Source of the DNA: Squalus acanthias
Taxonomy: Eukaryota
DNA: 64,000 nt
Assembly: GCA_030390025.1 (NCBI GenBank)
Contig: CM059432.1
Span: forward strand, 30,444,001-30,508,000
Direction: 5' to 3'
The notes beneath the pieces are model-generated. The model had not been told where the DNA came from and made no database searches. It worked only from the letters and a program-made list of their open reading frames with translations. The first letter of the stretch is position 1. Each line of letters begins with the position of its first letter. A program made the position numbers and the translations under genes. Below, one piece after another: positions 1,965 to 63,636 of the stretch.

Positions 1965-3423
1965 CATTTGCCTTTGCCTGTCCTAATGCTCCTATGAAGT
2001 GCTACCCCAGTCGCTGCACAATGGCTGGTGGAAGGCTGCTGACATTCAGTTGGGGAGACTGCAGATGGCCTTGCAGGATGACCTCGAGCAGCTGTGGGCC
2101 ATCAGACCCTGCATCTGGTTGGGTTCACAAGTGCAGTAATGGAGTTGGCCATTAATTCCGTGCTGGAAATCATGGGCTCCAAGCACTGCGCAGAGCCCCG
2201 TGCAGGGTTGGAGCCGGATTCCTCCATGCTCCTTGACATTACACTCAGGCTTTCTGGCAGGCCTGCCAATGCACCTAGCATCTCATTGTGCATACCCTTC
2301 TTCCGTAGGCCACCCCATTGAAGTCCTCATCTGAGTTCTCTGCAGCAGAACTCATGTGTGACCTCGCCCTCTGAGGAGGTGGCACTGGCGATACCCTTTC
2401 CCTCTGCCCTGGCTGCAGGCCACTCATGCCCGGTGTCTCACCACGTACAGTTCCCTCGTCTAACCTATCCTCTAAAGTACGCGGAGTGTCAGTCTCTGAG
2501 CTGGTGGCTGGGATTATGAAATCGAGTGACACTATGTCTTCATGATCACTGTCTTCCTGCTCCTTCACCAGTGCATGGCCAGGTTGCAGTTCTTTGCAAT
2601 CTGAAACGAGAAAGGCACACGGGTACTGTTGTGGTGAGGGGAGGGGGGAAAGCAAGAGATGCATGCTTACACCATCTGCAGCTTATAAGTCAGAAGAGAT
2701 AGTGGGATGAGGGGGAAGTGGGATGTGAGAAGGAGGATTAGGTATGAGGATACCGTCATCTTGAATTGCTTCAGCCCCGCCGCTGGCCACGGGCTCAGCG
2801 ATTGCCCTTCCAAGAATGGCCAGCACCATCTCCTCCAAGTGGGTGAGATTACCCAGGCGCGCCCGTGTCCCTTCGGGTAGCCCCTGCTGGCTCCAATTGT
2901 GAGCCACCTTGTTCTGCAAGAGAAAAGGAAGTGTGTCAGTGAGTGTGGTGCAATGTGTGAGGTGCCTGTCATGGTTGATTGGCTGACAGTTTGTGCAAGA
3001 TGTGAGATGTGGGTGGGGGTCTTGCAGCAGTGGTATGTGTGTGAGGGTGAGGTGAAGCTATGAATGTGAGGTATAAGTCGTGTTTGGTAGCGATTGTTGG
3101 TAGGTGAGTGATGGGGGTGTGGTGCATTGAGCAGTGTGTGAGGCTAGTGGTGGGATATGGCATTTGAAGATGAATTCAATGTCCTTAACCACTCGTGTGA
3201 TGTCATTAAACCTCTTTCTGCACTGCAGCCAAGACCTTGGAGTTACACTGCTGGCATTGACAGCTATGGCCATCTGCTCCCATTGATGTTTTCAATTTTG
3301 CCTGGAGGGTCCCCTGGCCCCTTGTAGAAATTGGACCTCTCTGCTCCTTTCCACCTCCTGCACCAAGGCCTCCAGTGCTGCATCAAAGAACCTTGGTGCA
3401 TAGGCTCTCCCCTGTTGTGACAT
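1965..3423 (-). pseudogene. Harbinger Myb/SANT-like DNA-binding protein gene, 3 exons, decayed
   Basis: ATG at 3423 gives MSQQGRAYAPRFFDAALEALVQEV; then RSWLQCRKRFNDITR; exon 2 NKVAHN...LTHLEEMVLAILG; exon 3 EMLGALAGLPESL..MSRSMEES. Confidence 0.85.
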
Positions 3424-4271: not shown

Positions 4272-5262
4272 ATTCTTTTTTAAATTCGTTTTTATGGGAT
4301 GTGGGCGTCGCTGGCAAAGCCAGCATTTATTGCCCATCCCTAATTGCCCTTGAGAAGGTGGTGGTGAGCCACCTTCTTGAACCGCTGCAGTCCGTGTGGT
4401 GAAGGTACTCCCAGAGTGCTGTTAGTTAGGGAGTTCCAGGATTTTGACCCAGCGACGATGAAAGTCAGGATGATGTGTGACTTGGAGGGGAGCTTGGAGG
4501 TGGTGGTGTTCCCATACGTCTGCTGCCCTTGTCCTTCTAGGTGGTAGTAGTCGTGGGTTTGAGCGGTGCTGCCGAAGAAGCCTTGGCGAGTTGCTGCAGT
4601 GCATCTTGTAGATGGTACACACTGCAGCCATGGTACGCCGGTGGTGGAGGGAGTGGATGTTTAAGGTGGTAGAGGGGGTGCCAATCAAGCGGGCTGATTT
4701 GTCCTGGATGGTGTCGAGCTTCTTGAGTGTTTTTGGAGCTACACTCATCCAGGCAAATGGAGAGTATTCCATCACACTCCTTACTTGTGCCTTGTAGATA
4801 GTAGAAAGGCTTTGGGGAGTCAGGAGGTGAGACACTCACCACAGAATACCTAGCCTCTGACCTGCTCTTGTTGCCACAGTATTTACGTGGCTGGTCCAGT
4901 TAAGTTTCTGGTCAATGGTGATGTTGATGGTGGGGAATTCGGCGATGGTAATGCCATTAAATGTCAAGGGGTGGTGTTTAGACTCTCGCTTGTTGGAGAT
5001 AGTCGTTGCCTGGCACTTGTGTGGCGCGAATGTTACCTGCCACTTATCAGCCCAAGCCGGAATGTCGTCCAGGTCTTGTTGCATGCGGGCATGGACTGCT
5101 TCATTATCTGAGGAGTTGTGAATGGCACTGAACAATGTACAGTCAACAGCGAACATCCCCATTTCTGACCTTATGTTGGAGGGAATCGCTGAAGATTGTG
5201 ACCTTCAATCACTACAACCATCTTCCTTTGTGCTAGGTATTACTCCAGCCAGTAGAGAGTTC
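4272..5262 (-). mobile_element. LINE family B (CR1/L2-group non-LTR retrotransposon), RT C-terminus and 3' tail
   Basis: ORF pieces MFAVDCTLF, WADKWQVTFAPHKCQ, IYKAQVRSVMEYS, LDTIQDK; 3' tail GGGCAATAAATGCTGGC..GCCAGCGACGCCCACATCCC. Confidence 0.9.
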
Positions 5263-31028: not shown

Positions 31029-33956
31029 ATGCAATCTAAATTCCCCATTCACAAACAGTCCCATACCTTATCTTCCCTCTGTTACTGACCATCAAAGCAT
31101 CCTCTTGGCCACAATGCAAAATTAAAGTAAAAATCAAAATAAACATTCCAAACCAAATTTATAAATCAAACCATGCCACATTGCATACAAATGTCAACTA
31201 ATCACACTTGTGCATTCCCGCAGTGCCTGTTTTCCGTGCGCCTTTACCTGTCCCAGTGATCTTACGCAGTGCTACCCCAGTGGCTGCAGCATGGCTGGTG
31301 GGAGGCTGCTGACTTTCAGTGGGGGAGCCTGCAGATGGCCTTGCATGACGACCTCAAGCAGCTCTGGGCCTAGAAGGCCCGGCTTCGGTCTGCACCATCT
31401 CGACATGGGCAGCAGCAGTCTAGACTGGCTGGCTGACAGGCAACAGCAAGGGCACGAGCGGAGTGGCAGGGGTCGGAGGACGAATGCTGTCATCCTGAGA
31501 GAGGACAGCGGGTTTGTGCTCCACGGAGCCACTGCCACTCCCCCAGGACAGCACCGCAGCAATCCTAGTAATCTGTTGGAGGACAGATTGCTGGACTGCT
31601 GTGACACTCTGCAAGCCCCGTTGATCACTGGATCACTGGTAACCGCAAGCACGATGGTAGCAGTCTGAGTTTCAACTGCAACATCCAGACGTTGGATGGC
31701 TTCTACCTATGCTGCAGTGGAAGCTGAGACATCAGCCATCAGACGCTGCATCATGTTTGGGTCCACAAGTGTGCTAATGGAGTTGGCCACCACTTCCATG
31801 CTGGAAAGAATGGGCTCCAAGCTCTGTGCAAAGCCATGTGCCAAGTTGGTGCTGGACTCCTCCATGATCCTTGACATTGCACACGGGCTTTCTGGCAGGC
31901 CTGCCAATGCACCTTTGTGCTAGGTATGACTTCAGCCAGTGGAGAGTTTTCTCCCTGATTCCCATGGACTTCAATATTACTGGGGCTCCTTGATGCCACA
32001 TTTGGTTAGAAGCTACCTTGATGTCAAGGACAGTCACGTTCACCTCACCTCTAGAATTCAGTTCTTTTGTCCATGTTTGGACTAAGGCTGTACTGAGGTT
32101 TGGAGCCGAGTGGTCCTGGCGGAACCCAAACTGAACATCGGTGAGCAGGTTACTGGTGAGTAAGAGCACTGTCGACGACATCTTCCATCACTTCGCTGAT
32201 GATTGAGAGTAGACTGATGGGGCGGTAATTGGTCGGATTGGATTTGTCCTGCTTTTTGTGGACAGGACATACCTGGGCAGTTTTCCACCTTGTCGGGTAG
32301 ATGCCAGTGTTGTAGCTGTACTGGAACAGCTTGGCTAGAGGCGCGGCTAGTTCTGGAGCACAAGTCTTCAGCACGACAGCCGGGATGTTGTTGGGGCCCA
32401 TAGCCTTTGGTCTACCCAGTATGCTCAGCCGTTTCTTGATATCACGTGGAGTGAATCAAATTGGCTGAAGACTGGTTTCTGTGATGGTGGGAACCTCAGG
32501 AGGAGGCCGATATGGATCATCCACTCGGCACTTCTGGTTGAAGATGGTTGCAAATGCTTCAGCCTTGTCTTTTTCAATCACGTGCTGGGCTCCGACATCA
32601 TTGAGGATGGGGATGTTCATGGAGCCTCCTCCTCCCGTTAGTTGTTCAATTGTCCACCACCATTCATGACTGGATGTGACAGGACTGCAAACCTTTGATC
32701 TGATCCGTTGATTGTGGGATCGCTTAGCTCTGTCTATAGCATGCTGCTTCCGCTGTTTAGCATGCATGTAGTTCTGTGTTGAAGCTTCCCCACGTTGGCA
32801 CCTCATTTTTTTTTAGGTACACCTGGTGCTGCTCCTGGCATGCTCTTCTGTACTCCTCATTGAATCAGGGTTGGTCCCCTAGCTTGATTGTAATGGTAGA
32901 GTGAGGGATATGCCGGGCCATGAGGTTACAGATTGTGGTGGAAATAAATTCTGCAGCTGCTGATGGCCCACAGCGCCTCATGGATGCTCAGTTTTGAGTT
33001 GCTAGATCTGTTCTGAATCTATCCCATTTAGCACGGTGGTCGTGCCACACAACACGATGGAGGGTGTCCATAGTGTGAAGACGGGACTTTGTCTCCACAA
33101 GGACTGTGCGCTGGTCACTGCTACCAACGCTGTCATGGACAGATGCATCTGTGACAGGTAGATTGGTGAGGACGAGGACAAGTAGGTTTTTCCCTTGTGT
33201 TGGCTCTCTCACCACCTGCCGCAGGCCTAGTCTGGCAGCTATGTCCTTCAGGACTTGGCCAGTAGTGGTGGTACTGAGCCACTCTTGGTGATGGACATTG
33301 AAGTCCCCCATCCAGAGTACATTCTGTGCCCTTGCTACCCTCTGTGCTTCTTCCAAGTGGTGTTCAACATGGAGGAGTACTGACTCATCTGCTGAGGGAG
33401 GGCAGTAGGTGGTAATCAGCAGGAGGTTTCCTTGCCCATGCTTGACCTGAAGCCATAAGAATTCATGGGGTCTAGAGTCAACGTTGAAGACTCCCAGGGC
33501 CACTCCCTCCCGACTGTGTACCACGTGCCGCCACCTCTGGTGGGTCTGTCCTGCCGATGTGTCAGGACATACCCAGGAATGGTGATGGAGGAGTCTGGGA
33601 TCTTGGCTGAAAGGTATGACTCTGTGAGTATGACTATGTCAGGCTGCTGCTTGACTAGTCTGTGGGACAGCTCTCCCAATTTTGGCACAAGTCCCCAGAT
33701 GTTCGTGAGGAGGACTTTGCAGGGTCGACTGGGCTGGGTGTGCCTTTGTCGTGTCCGAAGCCGGTGCCTACGTCGATGACAGGTGGTCCTTCTGGTTTTA
33801 TTCTTCTTATTGTTTCCCGTAGCGGTTGTGTACAACTGAGTGACATGCTAGGTCATTTCAGAGAGCATGATGCAGAGATGCCGGTGTTGGACTGGGGTGG
33901 ACAAAAATGAGAAGTCGCACAACACCAGGTTATAGTCCAACAGTTTTATTTAAAAT

Positions 33957-33991
33957 TACGAGCTTTCGGAACGCTGCTCCTTCTTCAGGTA
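33957..33991 (-). ncRNA. minimal type I hammerhead ribozyme motif
   Basis: UAC-CUGAAGA-A-GGAGC-AGC-GUUCC-GAAA-GC-UC-GUA. Confidence 0.7.
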
Positions 33992-34153
33992 AAATACAGC
34001 ATTTGACACGTTGGACCCCCTGTGACCCACCTCATTGTCTTAGCTGTACTCTGATGTGTCTTTGATGTAATGCCTCCCTAACAGATTGTATCTCTGCAGA
34101 CAAATTGTTCTCTGTGTATATATACTGTGTAATAGATTCCCTCACTGTACCTG

Positions 34154-34188
34154 TACCTGAAGAAGGAGCGGAGCTCCGAAAGCTCGTA
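34154..34188 (+). ncRNA. minimal type I hammerhead ribozyme motif
   Basis: UAC-CUGAAGA-A-GGAGC-GGA-GCUCC-GAAA-GC-UC-GUA: catalytic core, stem II, stem I (UAC/GUA) and palindromic AGCU stem III. Confidence 0.75.
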
Positions 34189-34207
34189 ATTTTAAATAAA
34201 ACTGTTG

Positions 34208-35099
34208 GGGGGAAAAATTAGGTCGCGCCCCATTTGGGGCGCAAATATCGTCTGGACGCAAATATTAGCGCCTGGCGCTAATTATCGGCACTGACTGGAA
34301 ACTTCACTTTTACCGCCCCGGGAGGTGAGTGGAGCGCTAAATCAGGCGCTGCACACCTGTCTTAAGGCGCAAAGGCCAAGGAGTGAGGCGCTAACTCAGA
34401 GCGCTGGCGAAGCTCATGTAATGTCAGTCAGCAATGGAACACACACACAATGGCACGGGCCAGTTCTTAAAGGGGATGGTTAATCTTGCTTTCCATCCAC
34501 ATCCTGTTCATTGCAGCCTTGAATCTCGGCCTGGAGAGACTTGCACATCAAATGTGCTGGAAAGAACAATGGAGAGTACCAGGCAAAGAGCTCAGAGTGC
34601 AGCTCCCACAGTCTCTGCTAAATCGATACAAGGAATGGCAAATCAAAATGAACCTGCAAAGTGCTGCTCAGTACCCAAAACTCCTTCACACAATGTTGAA
34701 TCTCTCCAGAAGTCTCTCCCTCTCTCTCTCAGAATGCGTAGTTCAAAAATGCCACCAACAATAAAAGACAGGAAGAGGCCCCCTTTAAATAGCGCCCCCC
34801 CCAGCCCCACAGCGATTGATAGCGTTCCAGTCTTCTGGTCGTTGAATGCGCCAGGCGGTAAGGCAGGGGGCGCCACTCAATTTCCGCTCCGGTCGCCACA
34901 AGGGCGTTGCACCATGGAATGACGTCACAATCTGCGCGCGCAGGTGGTCGCAGCGGTAAAGTTTAGCGCCACCGCACAATCTCTAGTTAAGTTCCCGAGC
35001 GGCGCAAACATCGCTGCGCCCGGGCGTTAGCGGCTTTGCGCCCCATTAGCGCCCTCTTAAGGCGCTAACGGGAGGCGCAACCAACTGAATTTTTCCCCC
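34208..35099. mobile_element. Harbinger-type MITE (892 bp), copy 1
   Basis: TIR GGGGGAAAAATT / AATTTTTCCCCC; perfect TTG TSD; near identical to 49704-50596. Confidence 0.95.
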
Positions 35100-35400
35100 T
35101 TGGACTATAACCTGGTGTTGTGCGACTTCTCATTTCAGAGAGCAGTTAAGAGTCAACCACATTGCTGTGGGTCTGGAGTCACATTTAGGCCAGACCAGGT
35201 AAGGATGGCAGATTTCCTTCCCTAAAGGGACATTAGTGAACCAGATGGGTTTTTACGACAATCCGATAGTTTCATGGTCACCATTACTAAAACTAGCTTT
35301 TGTTCCAGATTTATTTACTTAACTGAATTTAAATTCCCCAGCTGCCATCATGGGATTTGAACTCACGTATCTGGATCATAAGAACATAAGAACATAAGAA

Positions 35401-36290
35401 TTTTTTTTAAAATTCATTTAAAAGATGTGGGCATCGTTGGCAAGGCCAGCATTTATTACCCATCCCTAATTGCCCTTGAGAAAGTGGTGGTGAGAAGCCT
35501 TCTTGAACCGCTGCAGTCCGTGTGGTGAAGGTACTCCCACAGTGCTGTTAGGTAGGGAGTTCCAGGATTTTGACCCAGTGACGATGAAGGATCGGCGATA
35601 TACTTCTAAGTCAGGATGGTGTGTGACTTGAAGGGGAACTTGGAGGTGGTGGTGTTCCCATGCGCCTGCTGCCCTTGTCCTTCTAGGTGGAAGAGGTCGC
35701 GGGTTTCGGAGGTGCTACTGAAGAAGCCTTGGCAAGTTGTTGCAGTGCATCTTGTAGATGGTACACACTGCAGCCACGGTACACCGGTGGTGGAGGGAGT
35801 GAATGTTTAAGGTGGTGGATGGGGTGTCAATCAAGCGGGCTGCTTTGTCCTGGATGGTGTTGAACTTTATGAGTGTTGTTGGAGCTGCACTCATCTAGGA
35901 ATGTGGAGAGTATTCCATCACACTCCTGACTTGTGCCTTGTAGATGGTGGAAAGGTTTTGGGGAGTCAGGAGGTGAGACACTCGCCGCAGAATAACCAGC
36001 CTCTGACCTGCTCTTGTAGCCACAATAGTTATGTGGCTGGTCCAGTTAAGTTTCTGGTCAATGGTGACCCTCAGGATGTTGATGCTGGGGGATTCAGCGA
36101 TGGTACTGCCACTGAAAGTCAAGGGGCGGTGGTTAGACTCTCTCTTATTGGAGATAGTTATTGCCTGGCACTTGTGTGGTGCGAATGTTACTTGCCACTT
36201 ATCAGCCCAAGTCTGAATGTTGTCCAGGTCTTGCTGCATGTGGGCAAAGGCTGGTTCATTATCTGGGGAGTTGTGAATGGATCTGAACAC
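35401..36290 (-). mobile_element. LINE family B 3' fragment
   Basis: Homologous to 4272-5150 (WADKWQVTFAPHKCQ, YKAQVRSVMEYS, same 3' tail). Confidence 0.92.
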
Positions 36291-37895
36291 CAGCGTTTTA
36301 CCTACTACTGATGTCAGGCTAACTGGCCTGTAGTCCCTGTTTTTTCCTCTTCCCCCTTTCTTAAATAGCGGGGTTATTTTTGCTACCTTCCAATCCTTGG
36401 GGACTGTTCTAGAATCTAGGGAATTCTGGAAGATTAATACCAGTGCATCCACTATCTCTGCAGCTACCTCTTTTAAAACCCTAGGATGCAAGTCATCAGG
36501 TCCAGGGGATTTGTCGCCACTTAGTCCCATTAATTTCTCCAGTACTATGTATTTACTTATACTGATTTCTTTAAGTTCCTCATTCTCATTAGACCCTTGG
36601 TTCCCCATTATTTCCGGAATTTTTTTGTGCCTTCTACCGTGAAGACACATACAAAGTATTTATTTCATGTCTCTGCCATTTCTTTATTGCCCATCATAAT
36701 TTCTCCTGTCTCTGCCTCTAATGGGCCCACATTTACTTTCACTTATCTCTTCCTATTTACATACCTATAGAAACGTTTACAAGCTGTTTTTATGTCTCTT
36801 GCTAGTTTACTCTCATATTCTTTGCTGAATTCTAAAATCCTCCCAATCCTCAGTCTTACTACTCTTTTTGGCAATATTATAAAACTCTTCCTTTGATCTA
36901 ATACGATCTTTAACTTCTCTTGTTAGCCACGGTTGGACCACTTTTCCTGTGGGGCTTTTGTACCTTAAAGGAATGTATATTTGTTGTAAATTATGTATTA
37001 ATTCTTTAAATGCTTGCCATTGCTTGTCTACCATCATACCTTTTAATGTAGTTTCCCAATCTACCTTAGCCAACTCGCCCCTCATAACTATGTAGTTTGC
37101 TTTATTTAGATTGAAGACCCTAGTTTCGGTTTTAACTAAATCACTTTCAAACGCAATATAAAATTCTATCATATCCTGGTCACTCTTCCCTAAAGGCCCC
37201 TTTACTACAAGGTTATTAATTAACCCTTTCTGATTGCAAAATACTAGATCTAAAATAGCCTGTTCCCTTGTTGGTTCCTCAATATACTGATCTAGAAAAC
37301 TATCTTGTAGACATTCCATGAATTCGTCCTCTACACTATTACTGCAAATTTGGTTTGCCCAGTCTATATGTAAATTAAAGTCCCCCATGATTACTGTATT
37401 ACCCTTGTTTCATGCGCCTCTAATTTCCTGATTTATACTCTGCCCTACATTACAACTACTGTTTGGGGGCCTATAAACAACTCCCATCAATGTTTTCTGC
37501 CCCTTGCTCTTTCTTAGCTCCACCCAAACTGATTCTACTTCTTGATTTTCAGAGCTAAGATCCTTTCTCGCTACTGTCTTTATCCCATCCTTTATTATCA
37601 GGGCTACCCCTCCTCCTGTTCCATTTTGTCTATCTCTTCTAAACGTTAAGTATCTGAGAATATTTAGTTCCCAACCTTGGTCACTTTGCAACCAATTCTC
37701 CGTAATGGCTATTAGATGAAACCTATTAATTTCTATCTGCGCTATTAATTCATCTATTTTGTTGCGAATGCGTCGCACATTCAGATATTTAGCTTTGACT
37801 TTTTTTTCTATTTTTCCCTGATGTCACCTTAGTCACTGATGCCCTATTACCTTTGTTACTCTCTCTGTCCCTTCTTGACTCACTCAGCTTATTTT
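36291..37895 (-). mobile_element. CR1 ORF2 5' part (APE to RT start); an isolated CR1 tail lies at 35377-35400
   Basis: IRNKIDEL, IAITENW, YRPP, MGDFN, KSPGPDDLHPRVLKE; same subfamily as 21900-25150. Confidence 0.92.
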
Positions 37896-39396: not shown

Positions 39397-39881
39397 GGGC
39401 TATGGTAGCATTGTGGTTATGCTACTGGACTAGATAATCCAGAGGCCTGGACGAATGATTTGGAGATATGAGTGCAAATCCCACCATGGCAGCTGGGGGA
39501 ATTTAAATTCAGTTAATTAAATAAATCTGGAAATAAAAAGCTAGTATCAGTAATGGTAACCATGAAACTACTGGATTGTTGTAAAAACCCATCTGGTTCA
39601 CTAATGTCCTTTAGGGAAGGAAATCTGCCATCTTTACCTGGTCTGGCCTATATGTGACTCCAGATCCACAATGTTGACTGTTAACTGGCCTCTGAAATGG
39701 CAAGCCATCTGGTTGTACCAAACCGCTATGACAAAGTCAGCACTGTGGGAATACCTTCAGCACACGGACTACAGCGGTTCAAGAAGGCGGCTCACCACCA
39801 CCTTCTCAAGGGCAATTAAGGATGGGCAATAAATGCTGGCCTTGCCAGGGATGCCCACATCCCTTGAGCGAATAAATAAAA
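39397..39881 (+). mobile_element. tRNA-derived SINE made of the LINE family B 5' head and 3' tail
   Basis: A box TAGCATTGTGG, anticodon-like stem CTGGA..TCCAG, B-box-like GAGTGCAAATCCC; body matches 35379-35135 and 33867-33819; tail from ~39738 matches 4420-4290. Confidence 0.92.
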
Positions 39882-49214: not shown

Positions 49215-49703
49215 AGATTGGCTGCAGCAGAAGGTCAGTCTTGCCTCTGAGTCAGAAGGAATTGGGTTCAAGTTCCACTCCAGAGACGTGAGCACCTAAT
49301 GACACCTCAGTGCTGTACTGAGGGAGTGTTGCATTGTCGGAGGTGCCGTCTTTCAGATGAGAGGTTAAAGCGAAGCTACGTCTGTCTCTTGTGTGAACAG
49401 TAAAGGTCCCATAACACTATTCAAAGAAGAGCAGGGGAGTTCTCCATATTTATCCCTCAACCAACATCACGAAAACTGATTATCTGGTCATATCACATTG
49501 CTGTTTGTGGGACCTTGCTCTTCACAAATTGGATGCCGCATTTCCTACATTATAACAATGTCTAACTTCAAAATTTATCTGTAAAGCACTTTGGGATGTC
49601 CCGAGATTATGAAAGACGCTATATCAATAAAAGTTATTTCTTGGTGTAGTTTGGTTTGCCTTCTGAGCTGGACGTAACTGGTGCTATATAAATACAAGTC
49701 TTT
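49215..49703 (+). mobile_element. DeuSINE (SacSINE1-like)
   Basis: GGGTTCAAGTTCCACTCCAGAGAC head; GAAGAGCAGGGGAGTTCTCC core; GCTATATAAATACAAGTCTTT tail. Confidence 0.88.
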
Positions 49704-50596
49704 GGGGGAAAAATTAGGTCGCGCCCCATTTGGGGCGCAAATATCGTCTGGACGCAAATATTAGCGCCTGGCGCTAATTATCGGCACTGACTGGAAACTT
49801 CACTTTTACCGCCCCGGGAGGTGAGTGGAGCGCTAAATCAGGCGCTGCACACCTGTCTTAAGGCGCAAAGGCCAAGGAGTGAGGCGCTACCTCAGAGCGC
49901 TGGCGAAGCTCATGTAATGTCAGTCAGCAATGGAACACACACACAATGGCACGGGCCAGTTCTTAAAGGGGATGGTTAATCTTGCTTTCCATCCACATCC
50001 TGTTCATTGCAGCCTTGAATCTCGGCCTGGAGAGACTTGCACATCAAATGTGCTGGAAAGAACAATGGAGAGTACCAGGCAAAGAGCTCAGAGTGCAGCT
50101 CCCACAGTCTCTGCTAAATCGATACAAGGAATGGCAAATCAAAATGAACCTGCAAAGTGCTGCTCAGTACCCAAAACTCCTTCACACAACGTTGAATCTG
50201 TCCAGAAGTCTCTCCCTCTCTCTCTCAGAATGCGTAGTTCAAAAATGCCACCAACAATAAAAGACAGGAAGAGGCCCCCTTTAAATAGCGCCCCCCCCAG
50301 CCCCACAGCGATTGATAGCGTTCCAGTCTTCTGGTCGTTGGATGCACCAGGCGGTAAGGCAGGGGGCGCCACTCAATTTCCGCTCCGGGGCGCCACAAGG
50401 GCGTTGCACCATGGAATGACGTCACAATCTGCGCGCGCAGGTGGTCGCAGCGGTAAAGTTTAGCGCCGCCGCACAATCTCTAGTTAAGTTCCCGAGCGGC
50501 GCAAACATCGCTGCGCCCGGGCGTTAGCGGCTTTGCGCCCCATTAGCGCCCTCTTAAGACGCTAACGGGAGGCGCAACCAAGTGAATTTTTACCCC
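49704..50596. mobile_element. Harbinger-type MITE (893 bp), copy 2
   Basis: Near identical to 34208-35099; flanks TTT/TAT. Confidence 0.95.
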
Positions 50597-51679
50597 TATG
50601 TTTCTTTAGCTTGGTTACAGCTTGCACTACTCAGCACTAACTGCTGTAACAACGTAAATAGCACCTGATAAGGTCCAAAGTACAAAGTAGCTGACAGATA
50701 ACTCTTCACCTCCGCTGTAGTACAACCACCACCACCCCTTACGACTGTACCTCACTTATCACCATTTATTTTTCAGCTTTTTGACCACACCTACCAAAAA
50801 AATATTCTAAAATATCCAAAATCATCACACACTTCTGCAAAGGAATAGCTAAAGCTTGAGAAATGAATTCATTTTGTACATAGTTGTCGACATTTTAGCG
50901 TCAAATCTATTTGGTTAATATTTCAGTTATCTCTTCTGAACATCACGGGCGTTGCAAATGGAGAGGATAAAACTGCCCGACGCGTAGAGCGGGCAAATCG
51001 CGTTAGCACCAACGCTGTAAGTAGTGTTTACTAGAAATAAATTTAAAATAAAAGAAATAGCAGTGAGCGAATGGGGTCAGAGGAAAACAGGACAAGGAAA
51101 TATAAGCCTGAAATCTACTGTAGCTGATATTAGTGAATGAGATCTTAATGTGGTCTTGCTATTTAAAGCAAGCGTTAGACTATTTTTAAAATAAATGGGT
51201 CAGAATAGCAGGCAAAGGAATGACATACAAAAGCATTGTGTTCACCAACAGACATTTCCGGGCTGGACTGTTTACATTTAGGTTTAGTTAATGTAGCTTT
51301 GGCATGAATTCTGTAGCTTCGGGTTAATATTACAGTAATAAAGCTCACGCTGACACCTGGGCCTCGTGCGCTAAAGGTTACTAATTTGGCGATACCTGTT
51401 TGCGTCTGCAAGAAAGCTGCACATTAGGGTAAATTGTATGATTGGTGTAACACACGTGCATATCAGGAATTGGGCTGCAACTGTCATTAATGGATAGAAA
51501 ACTGGATCCATGACTTTGACATGTGAATTCCCAATATGTGTTGCCATCAAATGAAGCTCTGAAGCGCTAAATTGGAATATTTACTCTTCTGCCTGTTTTG
51601 CTTCGCATGCCTGGTTGAGTTTCAGTTTGGAATTAAAGAGATTCCAGCAAACTTTCTATGGCTGTGTCTCCTTTTGTGT

Positions 51680-62250: not shown

Positions 62251-63414
62251 TTAGGCTCGTTAAACCCAGACAGTTCTTTGCTGGGAAGTTAAGGCAAAGG
62301 GTTACGGATTTATCTGGTGACCTTGATAAATATTCTTGTCATGGTACCAATCCGAGTGTTCTTAAAATCAAGGGCTGTAGTCACGTCTGCAGAGCTTCCA
62401 CTCTCAGTAATAATAATCCCAGCGCTCAGAAATAATTGCGCTTGATATTAGCTTCCAAAAGTGTTATTTGAATGGCTTCATGCCTCAATTAAAATAGCAG
62501 ACAATGTAATGTCATGCAAACATGTTTAGCATTTGGATGCTAACATTGCACATAGTAATTTTTTGACTACATAATAAGAAGTGAATAATGAATCATCTCC
62601 AAAATCTTCACATTCAGTTGTAGTCTATTGCCACTTACTAAATGTCATGATCAAATCCCAAGAACAAAATAAAAAACAAACTGGCAGTGGTAGGGGGTGA
62701 GGAGGCTTGATAGATGTTTAAGATTTTCCTGGAGAATTTGGATCTAGGACAGTCAGGGAACAGGATTCAAGGCAATAGGATACAGTTTAAAGTTAAAGGG
62801 ATATAATTTTGTATTGGGTGTGAGCGCAAAATGGGCGATAGCGAATCGGCAGTCTGTTACACGCTCCGCCTGATTTTTGTTTCCATTGAAGTCAATTCAT
62901 TATCGCTCTTTTTTCCCTAAGTTGTCAAAAGGAAAATATGAAATTTATGCAACATTTTTTTAGTAAGAGAGTGATAGAGTTGCAGAACAGGTTATTAGCG
63001 AGAGTGCAGGAACAGAAAACCATGGTAGGTTTTATAAACAGACCAGGTGAATTTCAATTAGGAAAAAAGATACTGGGCTATTTGTTCTGGAATCAGTAAT
63101 GAAACTGATGGGACCTTTAGAAGGGTAGGCCAGATAGGTTGATGATCTACTCTTGCCCAAATAATTACAAGTTCCAATCTATTTGGAAGTGAATAGAAGG
63201 CAGTAATGAACCATAAATTAATGGGATATTGTCTGGTTTTATTTTCACATACCTTTTACCACCTTTAACTTCTATATATAAACCACCCAAACCCTTCGAT
63301 TAAATTCCAGCCTGTAACTCATTCCCAGGTGTCTATTGTTCTATATATAATCCATCCATCTCTGTTATATATAATCTTTCTTTCTTTAATATAGTCTTTC
63401 TTTCTTTATATAAA

Positions 63415-63636
63415 AATGAGAAGTCGCACAACACCAGGTTATAGTCCAACAGATTTATTTAATTTTACAAGCTTTCGAAGCAGTTCGCTCCTTCGTCAGG
63501 TAAGTTAGCAATGAGAGAATCTCCCAGAATTCACAATTTAAACCCAGACAAAATCTATTCACATTATTCCCTGCAACAAAGAGCACAGCCAAGACAATGA
63601 GATGTGTCCCAGGGGGTCCAACGTGTCAAACCACCT
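63415..63636 (-). mobile_element. Penelope-like terminal repeat (33868 family)
   Basis: GAGAAGTCGCACAACACCAGGTTATAGTCCAACAG and GGGGGTCCAACGTGTCAAA are shared with 33910-34020. Confidence 0.85.
63465..63503 (-). ncRNA. minimal type I hammerhead ribozyme motif
   Basis: UUAC-CUGACGA-A-GGAGC-GAACU-GCUUC-GAAA-GC-UU-GUAA. Confidence 0.7.

Follow-up and report, generated by a model that had tools for sequence, protein, structure and literature searches.

The window analysed here is a stretch of 64,000 nucleotides (nt) from Squalus acanthias (contig CM059432.1, positions 30,444,001 to 30,508,000 of the forward strand). Its minus strand carries at 31912-35382 a decayed copy of Zenon, a family of long interspersed nuclear elements (LINEs), in which a frame for an apurinic endonuclease (APE) and a reverse transcriptase (RT), broken by stops and frameshifts, is preceded by a transfer RNA (tRNA)-derived head. 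An earlier note on this DNA had taken that head for a native promoter of RNA polymerase III (Pol III), of the kind found in short interspersed nuclear elements (SINEs). Its interpretation is partly supported: the head is the family's own 5′ end, and Pol III transcription appears to be the best explanation of the features described below. In the order in which it is read, the copy consists of the following parts.

35352-35382, minus strand: B-box-bearing 3′ portion of the tRNA-derived head; A box lost
35130-35351, minus strand: AT-rich spacer and most of the conserved body of ~146 nt; holds the upstream copy (35144-35130) of the target-site duplication (TSD)
33868-35129, no strand assigned: later TSD-bounded insertion of 1262 bp, foreign to the Zenon family
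33824-33867, minus strand: last stretch of the conserved body, with the downstream TSD copy (33867-33853); the coding frame follows directly
33716-33823, minus strand: basic N-terminal extension of the single open reading frame (ORF); probable non-AUG start at or next to GCT (Ala) at 33823-33821
31912-33715, minus strand: decayed frame of the APE endonuclease and the N-terminal RT portion, ending in the cut at majority position 2255

The earlier note had placed a B box at 35364-35352, and GAGTTCAAATCCC stands exactly there on the minus strand. The insertion it had reported was likewise found: the 15-bp direct repeat TGCTCTCTGAAATGA occurs at 35144-35130 and 33867-33853 and flanks the 1262 bp of 33868-35129. 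Once these are removed, the minus strand reads continuously, as claimed, because 35382-35131 corresponds to positions 54-305 of the family majority (94.5% identity) and 33867-31912 to positions 292-2255 (92.4%). The majority sequence was built from 18 copies; L095 was excluded for its missing tail and L108 for an insertion. The endonuclease opens with VLLTNIWGL at 33715, where the note had expected it (~33720), and in the broken frames Pfam detects Exo_endo_phos_2 (E 9.5e-10) and a partial RVT_1 match (E 9e-5, below the curated cut-off). The head has lost its first ~55 nt, including the A box, and a (TTCTTATG)n tail stands in their place; the A box, which the note had seen in a nearby SINE, lies there at 39406-39416. 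On the other side, the copy is cut inside the RT at 31912.

The native 5′ end of the family

The first 400 nt of the published consensus SquAca_Zenon-1 are nearly identical to the copies found here, which identifies the family as the elasmobranch Zenon LINE of the CR1 group. This settles a point that the earlier note had left open: the family is already known, and its consensus includes the head. Zenon elements without ORF1 and with an A-tail are described from elasmobranchs, coelacanth and hagfish (Stuart et al. 2026, PMC13343379), and our comparison with that source covers the first 400 characters of its supplement rows.

Copies were sought throughout the 3.7-Gb genome, whose closest named protein matches are from sharks and rays. 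Since these searches return the best-scoring copies, the fractions of head and body given below describe well-preserved ones. An anchor on the side of the junction yielded 4371 candidates; the best 40 were scored and 30 taken, and BLAST matched the body in 29 of these 30, the window copy included. As this anchor overlaps the body, we repeated the search with a second one, lying 560-860 nt inside the frame (2953 candidates, the best 40 scored, 30 taken, 29 of them besides the window copy). Head or body was present upstream in 24 of these 29 loci, and in 19 the match extended to head nt 1-9; the remaining five end within or just ahead of the frame. The genome-wide check for a different 5′ untranslated region (UTR) or an ORF1 in other copies thus brought up the same head and body again, and the majority of 18 copies has no ORF1. 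The claim that the tRNA head is native to the family is borne out.

The 5′ boundary is sharp. The element start GGGAAC was reached in 55 of 87 loci (29 of the 87 picked by a head query). Ahead of it the bases are mixed, with the last two places leaning to A and then to C/T, and in only one of 24 pairs of similar flanks did the similarity abut the element in both members. Full-length elements typically measure 3.2-3.3 kb with an A-tail (19 of the 20 longer stretches have both ends in range). They show no clear TSD, the best exact matches being 4-10 nt long in 19 of 20 (one had no tail in range). The family numbers thousands of copies. In the intact copy L075, the head corresponds to positions 7-64 of the Rfam tRNA model, with a score of 22.3 bits (gathering score 29). 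Taken together, an architecture of tRNA head and body that is real and family-wide is virtually certain.

Intact heads (for example, L076:1530-1570) fold into two similar tandem stem-loops, the anticodon arm and an extra arm. In three other sharks the extra arm has another sequence yet still pairs; it is mostly gone in the ray consensus.

The same head opens all seven elasmobranch Zenon consensi, from five species, whereas the three hagfish and coelacanth consensi are headless (supplement of PMC13343379). Comparison of the published consensi by eye showed that the A box is kept in five of five species and the B box in four of five, while the stem between them varies with compensatory pairs. 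The 146-nt body differs at 3-7 positions among five elasmobranch consensi (95-98% identity, by eye), compared with an overall identity of >84% given in passages of PMC13343379. Contigs of three other organisms also span the junction between body and frame. The head was probably acquired a single time, in the common ancestor of sharks and rays.

In a tree of 30 RT rows, the family falls into a clade (support 100/99) with elements from butterfly, isopod, crab and sponge, and CR1 and L2 elements of the same genome lie outside. The tree holds no named Zenon reference, so the name rests on the identity with SquAca_Zenon-1; the row labelled 'CR1ctrl_L104' is in fact a frameshifted Zenon copy. Outside sharks, nothing resembling the head at the DNA level turned up in 20 metagenome loci (protein identity 24-57%), most of which were T-rich; no relatives were found in viral or in prokaryote contigs. 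By eye, the 5′ UTR of a distant Zenon-like element in one metagenome contig (L136:262-430) resembles that of the coelacanth LatCha_Zenon-1 over ~150 nt, where headless Zenons may share a conserved RNA element; this region of L136 matched no Rfam model and had a fold z of -0.92. Several annotated shark proteins (P0001, P0003, P0054, P0057, P0075, P0079, P0085 and P0098) contain pieces of the Zenon frame and are probably gene-model artefacts or exonised copies.

T-run avoidance and the single reading frame

Pol III terminates at runs of four or more T. In the sense strand of the 3.3-kb majority there is not one TTTT, TCTTT or TATTT, compared with 20 TTTT in the antisense strand. Two control families, assembled from the same genome by a similar procedure, retain such runs: CR1 (24 loci) has ten runs of at least four T in 1946 nt, and L2 (19 loci) has six in 1509 nt. 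Observed and expected numbers of TTT are 7 and 24.7 for Zenon, 38 and 24.8 for CR1, and 27 and 33.2 for L2. The seven TTT compare with 19.6 in base shuffles (none of 1000 as low), and within the frame five compare with 11.3 in synonymous shuffles (P=0.008). T-rich stretches are depleted as well: 5-nt windows with at least four T number 1 against 9.6 in synonymous-codon shuffles (P=0.002) and 6-nt windows with four T number 8 against 27.8 in shuffles (0/500), although windows with five T in six are not significantly depleted relative to shuffles. Against base shuffles, the absence of TTTT alone gives P=0.011. Single copies carry 0-3 T4 runs each, at differing places, and the 11 T4 sites inside the 18 copies fall into 11 different alignment bins. 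The window copy has no T4 run in the 1956 nt of its body and one in its 243-nt head part.

The majority contains a single stop-free frame of 970 codons, every other frame being limited to 120 codons or fewer. No intact frame was found among loci L001-L110, where the longest stop-free stretch is 595 amino acids; intact frames are known from the ray (3 of 612) and the whale shark (1 of 1419; PMC13343379). The first Met of the 970-codon frame is codon 284. To locate the beginning of coding, we considered variants common to at least 5 of 63 copies, with CpG decay left out. The share that is synonymous in the 970-codon frame is 2 of 8 for the head, 3 of 12 for the body and 11 of 19 for the endonuclease. 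In the linker past its first ten codons the share is 6 of 7 in this frame and 1 of 7 in each other frame, and therefore the linker codes. The separate linker of ~100 bp in the earlier note is thus mistaken: it is the coding, basic N-terminus of the APE-RT frame. For the first ten codons themselves (0 of 8 synonymous), there is no synonymous bias within the Squalus acanthias genome.

Across species the frame can be followed back to GCT. By eye, the consensi of four other species are in frame from the same GCT, reading ATK or AKK, and the changes at their frame starts are synonymous apart from one 3-nt indel; one other-species consensus has a 1-nt deletion just ahead of GCT. Upstream, 44 of 63 copies have an in-frame TAA three codons ahead of GCT; an ATG that lies in frame still farther upstream is followed by TAG two codons later. 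Coding constraint starts directly behind the conserved body, without an in-frame AUG. Between two subfamilies (5 and 12 full-length copies) there are 20 synonymous and 8 non-synonymous differences, counting the lineage that lacks an out-of-frame ATG near the start; almost no copy of one major subfamily has this ATG. Because the linker codes and no in-frame ATG precedes codon 284, translation probably initiates at a non-AUG codon near the Ala-Thr-Lys start. ACG was considered as the start codon and ruled out, as other species show ACA or AAA at this place.

The putative Ala start resembles dicistrovirus intergenic internal ribosome entry sites (IRESs), which have Ala as the first codon. The distant homologues P0124, P0129, P0131 and P0168 have a 'WGAG' reading in common farther upstream; 14 codons after it, their N-terminus is basic and begins with ARNK or ATKK, comparable to the shark ATK. 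Non-AUG initiation may be more widespread among Zenons.

3′ ends, short derivatives and neighbouring repeats

The 3′ end resembles that of polyadenylated SINEs. AATAAA lies ~40 nt ahead of the tail in 34 of 42 ends. In the 32 ends that were scorable, that is, with a T-run followed by at least four A (ten were not), the T-run counts one T in 18, two in 3, three in 7, four in 3 and five in 1; it is thus at least three long in 11 of 32. In the Pol III-transcribed SINEs B2, Dip and Ves, as described in the abstract of PMC8466645, AATAAA is likewise present, and the terminator is shortened in daughter copies and re-elongated when tails are short.

A head query derived from the LINE returned 29 loci, 15 of which run on into the frame and 14 of which jump to the family's 3′ end. 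The junctions of these short repeats range over majority positions 307-374 on the left and 2852-3228 on the right; some recur, such as the right junction at 3161 in two loci and in the element at 39404 of the window. Some short repeats retain coding sequence specific to the LINE. They are best read as products of repeated internal deletion of the LINE, to judge from these junctions. As an alternative origin for the body we considered the Deu domain of SacSINE1. It was ruled out: by eye the body is unlike the Deu alignment (supplement of PMC7245038), and no Deu motif was found in it at three mismatches.

Three further pieces of Zenon lie in the window.

35400-36290, minus strand: 3′ fragment of another Zenon copy, with RT end, 3′ UTR, AATAAA, T4 and A-tail
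39404-39880, plus strand: short non-coding Zenon derivative, head and body joined to the 3′ end at majority position 3161; A box at 39406-39416, B box degenerate
4272-5261, minus strand: further Zenon 3′ fragment

In the last of these, the stretch 5261-4291 starts at majority position 2219, nearly the same place at which the window copy is cut (2255). The cut end of the window copy adjoins another repeat, placed at 31189-31914 and 1919-2276. A CR1 copy at 36290-37800 (minus strand) stops at its RT start and runs straight into the Zenon 3′ fragment, and the (TTCTTATG)n tail stands after this fragment, just ahead of the truncated head. A Deu-type SINE at ~61420-60960 (minus strand) has a tRNA-like head and a tail unlike those of the Zenon derivatives, contains Deu motifs and probably belongs to the SacSINE1 family. 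With its 15-bp TSD and a 36-bp inverted repeat (35100-35135 and 33905-33940), the insertion at 33868-35129 may be Penelope-like. It holds a nested 908-bp repeat (34193-35100) and is probably young, because this repeat is 98% identical to 49689-50597; related pieces lie at 63412-63630 and 49689-50597.

Proposed mechanism and alternatives

Pol III transcription is the best explanation of these features, and on the sequence evidence we consider it probable. Indirect support comes from three independent sides: T-runs are purged relative to two controls, the A and B boxes persist in different species, and the 3′ end is like that of polyadenylated SINEs. TFIIIC and Pol III would start at the first G of the head and read the whole 3.3 kb, as proposed because terminators have been selected out, and would stop at or after the T-stretch ahead of the A-tail. 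The RNA would be polyadenylated through AATAAA, as in B2-type SINEs. Its translation, in the absence of a cap, would be cap-independent and would begin at a non-AUG codon, either the Ala of 'ATK' or one next to it; the conserved body would act as the ribosome entry element. The APE-RT would then copy the RNA by target-primed reverse transcription and would also mobilise the short derivatives, which retain promoter and tail. As a whole, this mechanism of a Pol III-transcribed coding Zenon with deletion derivatives seems rather likely. Its weakest step is the cap-independent non-AUG translation through the body, for which we see an even chance. Cap- and AUG-independent translation in general stands at the same level and is less secure than Pol III transcription.

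Several observations weigh against this interpretation. The head's tRNA score is just 22.3 bits, in one of the nine loci submitted to Rfam, ARAGORN finds no tRNA gene in the window, and the B box of the ray consensus is one base short. Relative to synonymous shuffles the absence of TTTT is not significant (0 against 1.9, P=0.12); the purge is a signal in TTT and T-rich windows, measured against two control families, neither of them a Zenon, and C-runs are depleted too (CCC 61/83), as in the L2 control. The T-runs ahead of the A-tail can also come from tail mutation. Known Pol III retroelement RNAs measure 100-1263 nt, a size ascribed to the limited processivity of Pol III (passages of PMC10886601). 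As to translation, an out-of-frame ATG (in AAT-GAA) is present in six of seven published consensi and in ~14 of 61 copies here, and in the published SquAca_Zenon-1 the distance from GCT to ATG is one base shorter than in the copies found here, which puts both in one frame. Folds of the body, as of the head, are no more stable than those of shuffles (z -0.4 to -0.6 for the body), and body and head loci matched no Rfam IRES or ribozyme model. One series of compensatory pairs can be seen by eye, and a possible pairing of a loop with the start codon (AGC/GCT) spans just 3-4 bp.

The alternative that survives best is transcription by RNA polymerase II (Pol II), with a captured SINE head serving as 5′ UTR, head or body acting as an internal Pol II promoter, T-runs avoided so as to escape early polyadenylation or cryptic splicing, and translation by scanning of a capped RNA until a near-cognate start is reached. 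LINEs are regarded as Pol II elements (passages of PMC10886601 and PMC5786205), AATAAA and the A-tail are equally compatible with this, a capped RNA would be translated without any special element, and the missing folding signal of the body agrees. Nonetheless, two other LINE families of the same genome retain their T-runs, no part of the head is as well kept among the five species as its A and B boxes, and the element begins exactly at the head's first G. We regard Pol II transcription as unlikely.

Less likely still is a division of labour, in which Pol III makes the full-length template RNA and the protein acts in trans, being translated from capped but less frequent Pol II read-through RNAs of copies inside host transcription units, either from the out-of-frame AUG with a frameshift or by reinitiation. 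Such a scheme would explain the T-purge without an IRES, would give a role to the ATG of those six consensi and would suit the many short derivatives mobilised in trans. However, nearly all copies of one major subfamily lack this ATG, while the differences between subfamilies are mostly synonymous; in four other species the frame is kept, by eye, upstream of the ATG as far as GCT; and action purely in trans would relax selection on the frame. That a SINE came by chance to lie in front of a 5′-truncated LINE, as the missing A box of the window copy and its place within a nest of insertions might suggest, is refuted by the same junction in 24 of 29 anchor-selected copies, in all seven consensi published for sharks and rays and in contigs from three further organisms, and can be dismissed.

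How does a Pol III-transcribed coding Zenon compare with known systems? The elasmobranch Zenons (SquAca_Zenon-1/2/3, CarCar, RhiTyp, ScyCan and HypSab_Zenon-1) share the 3.3 kb, the lack of ORF1 and the poly-A tail; the main text of PMC13343379 uses 'tRNA' not at all and 'SINE' once, and the passages covered here take up neither the head and the T-purge nor the absent ATG and the short derivatives. Lepidopteran Zenon and Persaeus are alike in size (~3.3 kb), A-tail and internally deleted, trans-mobilised derivatives, but Persaeus is stated, in passages of PMC6740152, to be without tRNA homology or a Pol III promoter, whereas the shark LINE and its derivatives carry one. Bov-tA/BovB, CoeSINE4 and SINE2_Gav combine tRNA head, LINE 5′ part and LINE 3′ end in a short element, with the head only on the non-autonomous partner, whereas here it is on an autonomous CR1-group LINE; LINE 5′ parts in SINE bodies are reported there for RTE and Vingi only (passages of Kojima 2018, PMC5786205). 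SacSINE1 and other Deu-SINEs of cartilaginous fish (PMC5499810) are also tRNA-headed shark repeats, but the Zenon body differs from Deu.

B2, Dip and Ves owe their Pol III promoter to a small RNA gene and have AATAAA, a terminator whose T-length varies and an A-tail (abstract of PMC8466645), and the TRIMp3 elements Cassandra, Helenus and Ajax have a Pol III promoter of the same kind of origin (passages of PMC10886601); all are short and non-coding, unlike the shark Zenon. With the SINE2 class it shares the tRNA head with A and B boxes, but the full-length element is 3.3 kb and coding, and only its derivatives are short and non-coding. The earlier note's expression 'protein-coding SINE' is thus a fair picture of a possible way of working, although by descent the element is a LINE. 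The RNA of the LINE R2 has no cap. In L1Tc and R2 the uncapped end comes from a ribozyme like that of hepatitis delta virus; in the shark Zenon it would come from a tRNA-type promoter. Cap-independent translation of an uncapped LINE RNA, similar to what we propose, has been put forward for L1Tc (passages of PMC3383444).

The family itself is known as Zenon, with the head inside its published consensus; in the literature searched, the head and its consequences were not found described. This literature, which does not include Repbase or Dfam, yielded no paper on a Zenon with a tRNA head or with Pol III transcription, and a prior description outside it is possible.

In its fullest form, our proposal is a natural autonomous element that has existed since the shark-ray ancestor, with a 3.3-kb Pol III messenger RNA, B2-like polyadenylation, cap- and AUG-free translation through a 146-nt entry element, and derivatives that are SINEs born from their own LINE. 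In this completeness it is tentative, somewhat short of probable. LINEs are held to be Pol II-transcribed and coding, SINEs Pol III-transcribed and non-coding (passages of PMC10886601 and PMC5786205). If the proposal is true, this divide would be broken by a coding LINE in which selection has long favoured Pol III read-through, and Pol III would be able to make a translated 3.3-kb RNA in a vertebrate. The body would be a candidate for a compact vertebrate element of cap- and AUG-independent ribosome entry, and SINEs would have a direct route of birth, by internal deletion of a headed LINE.

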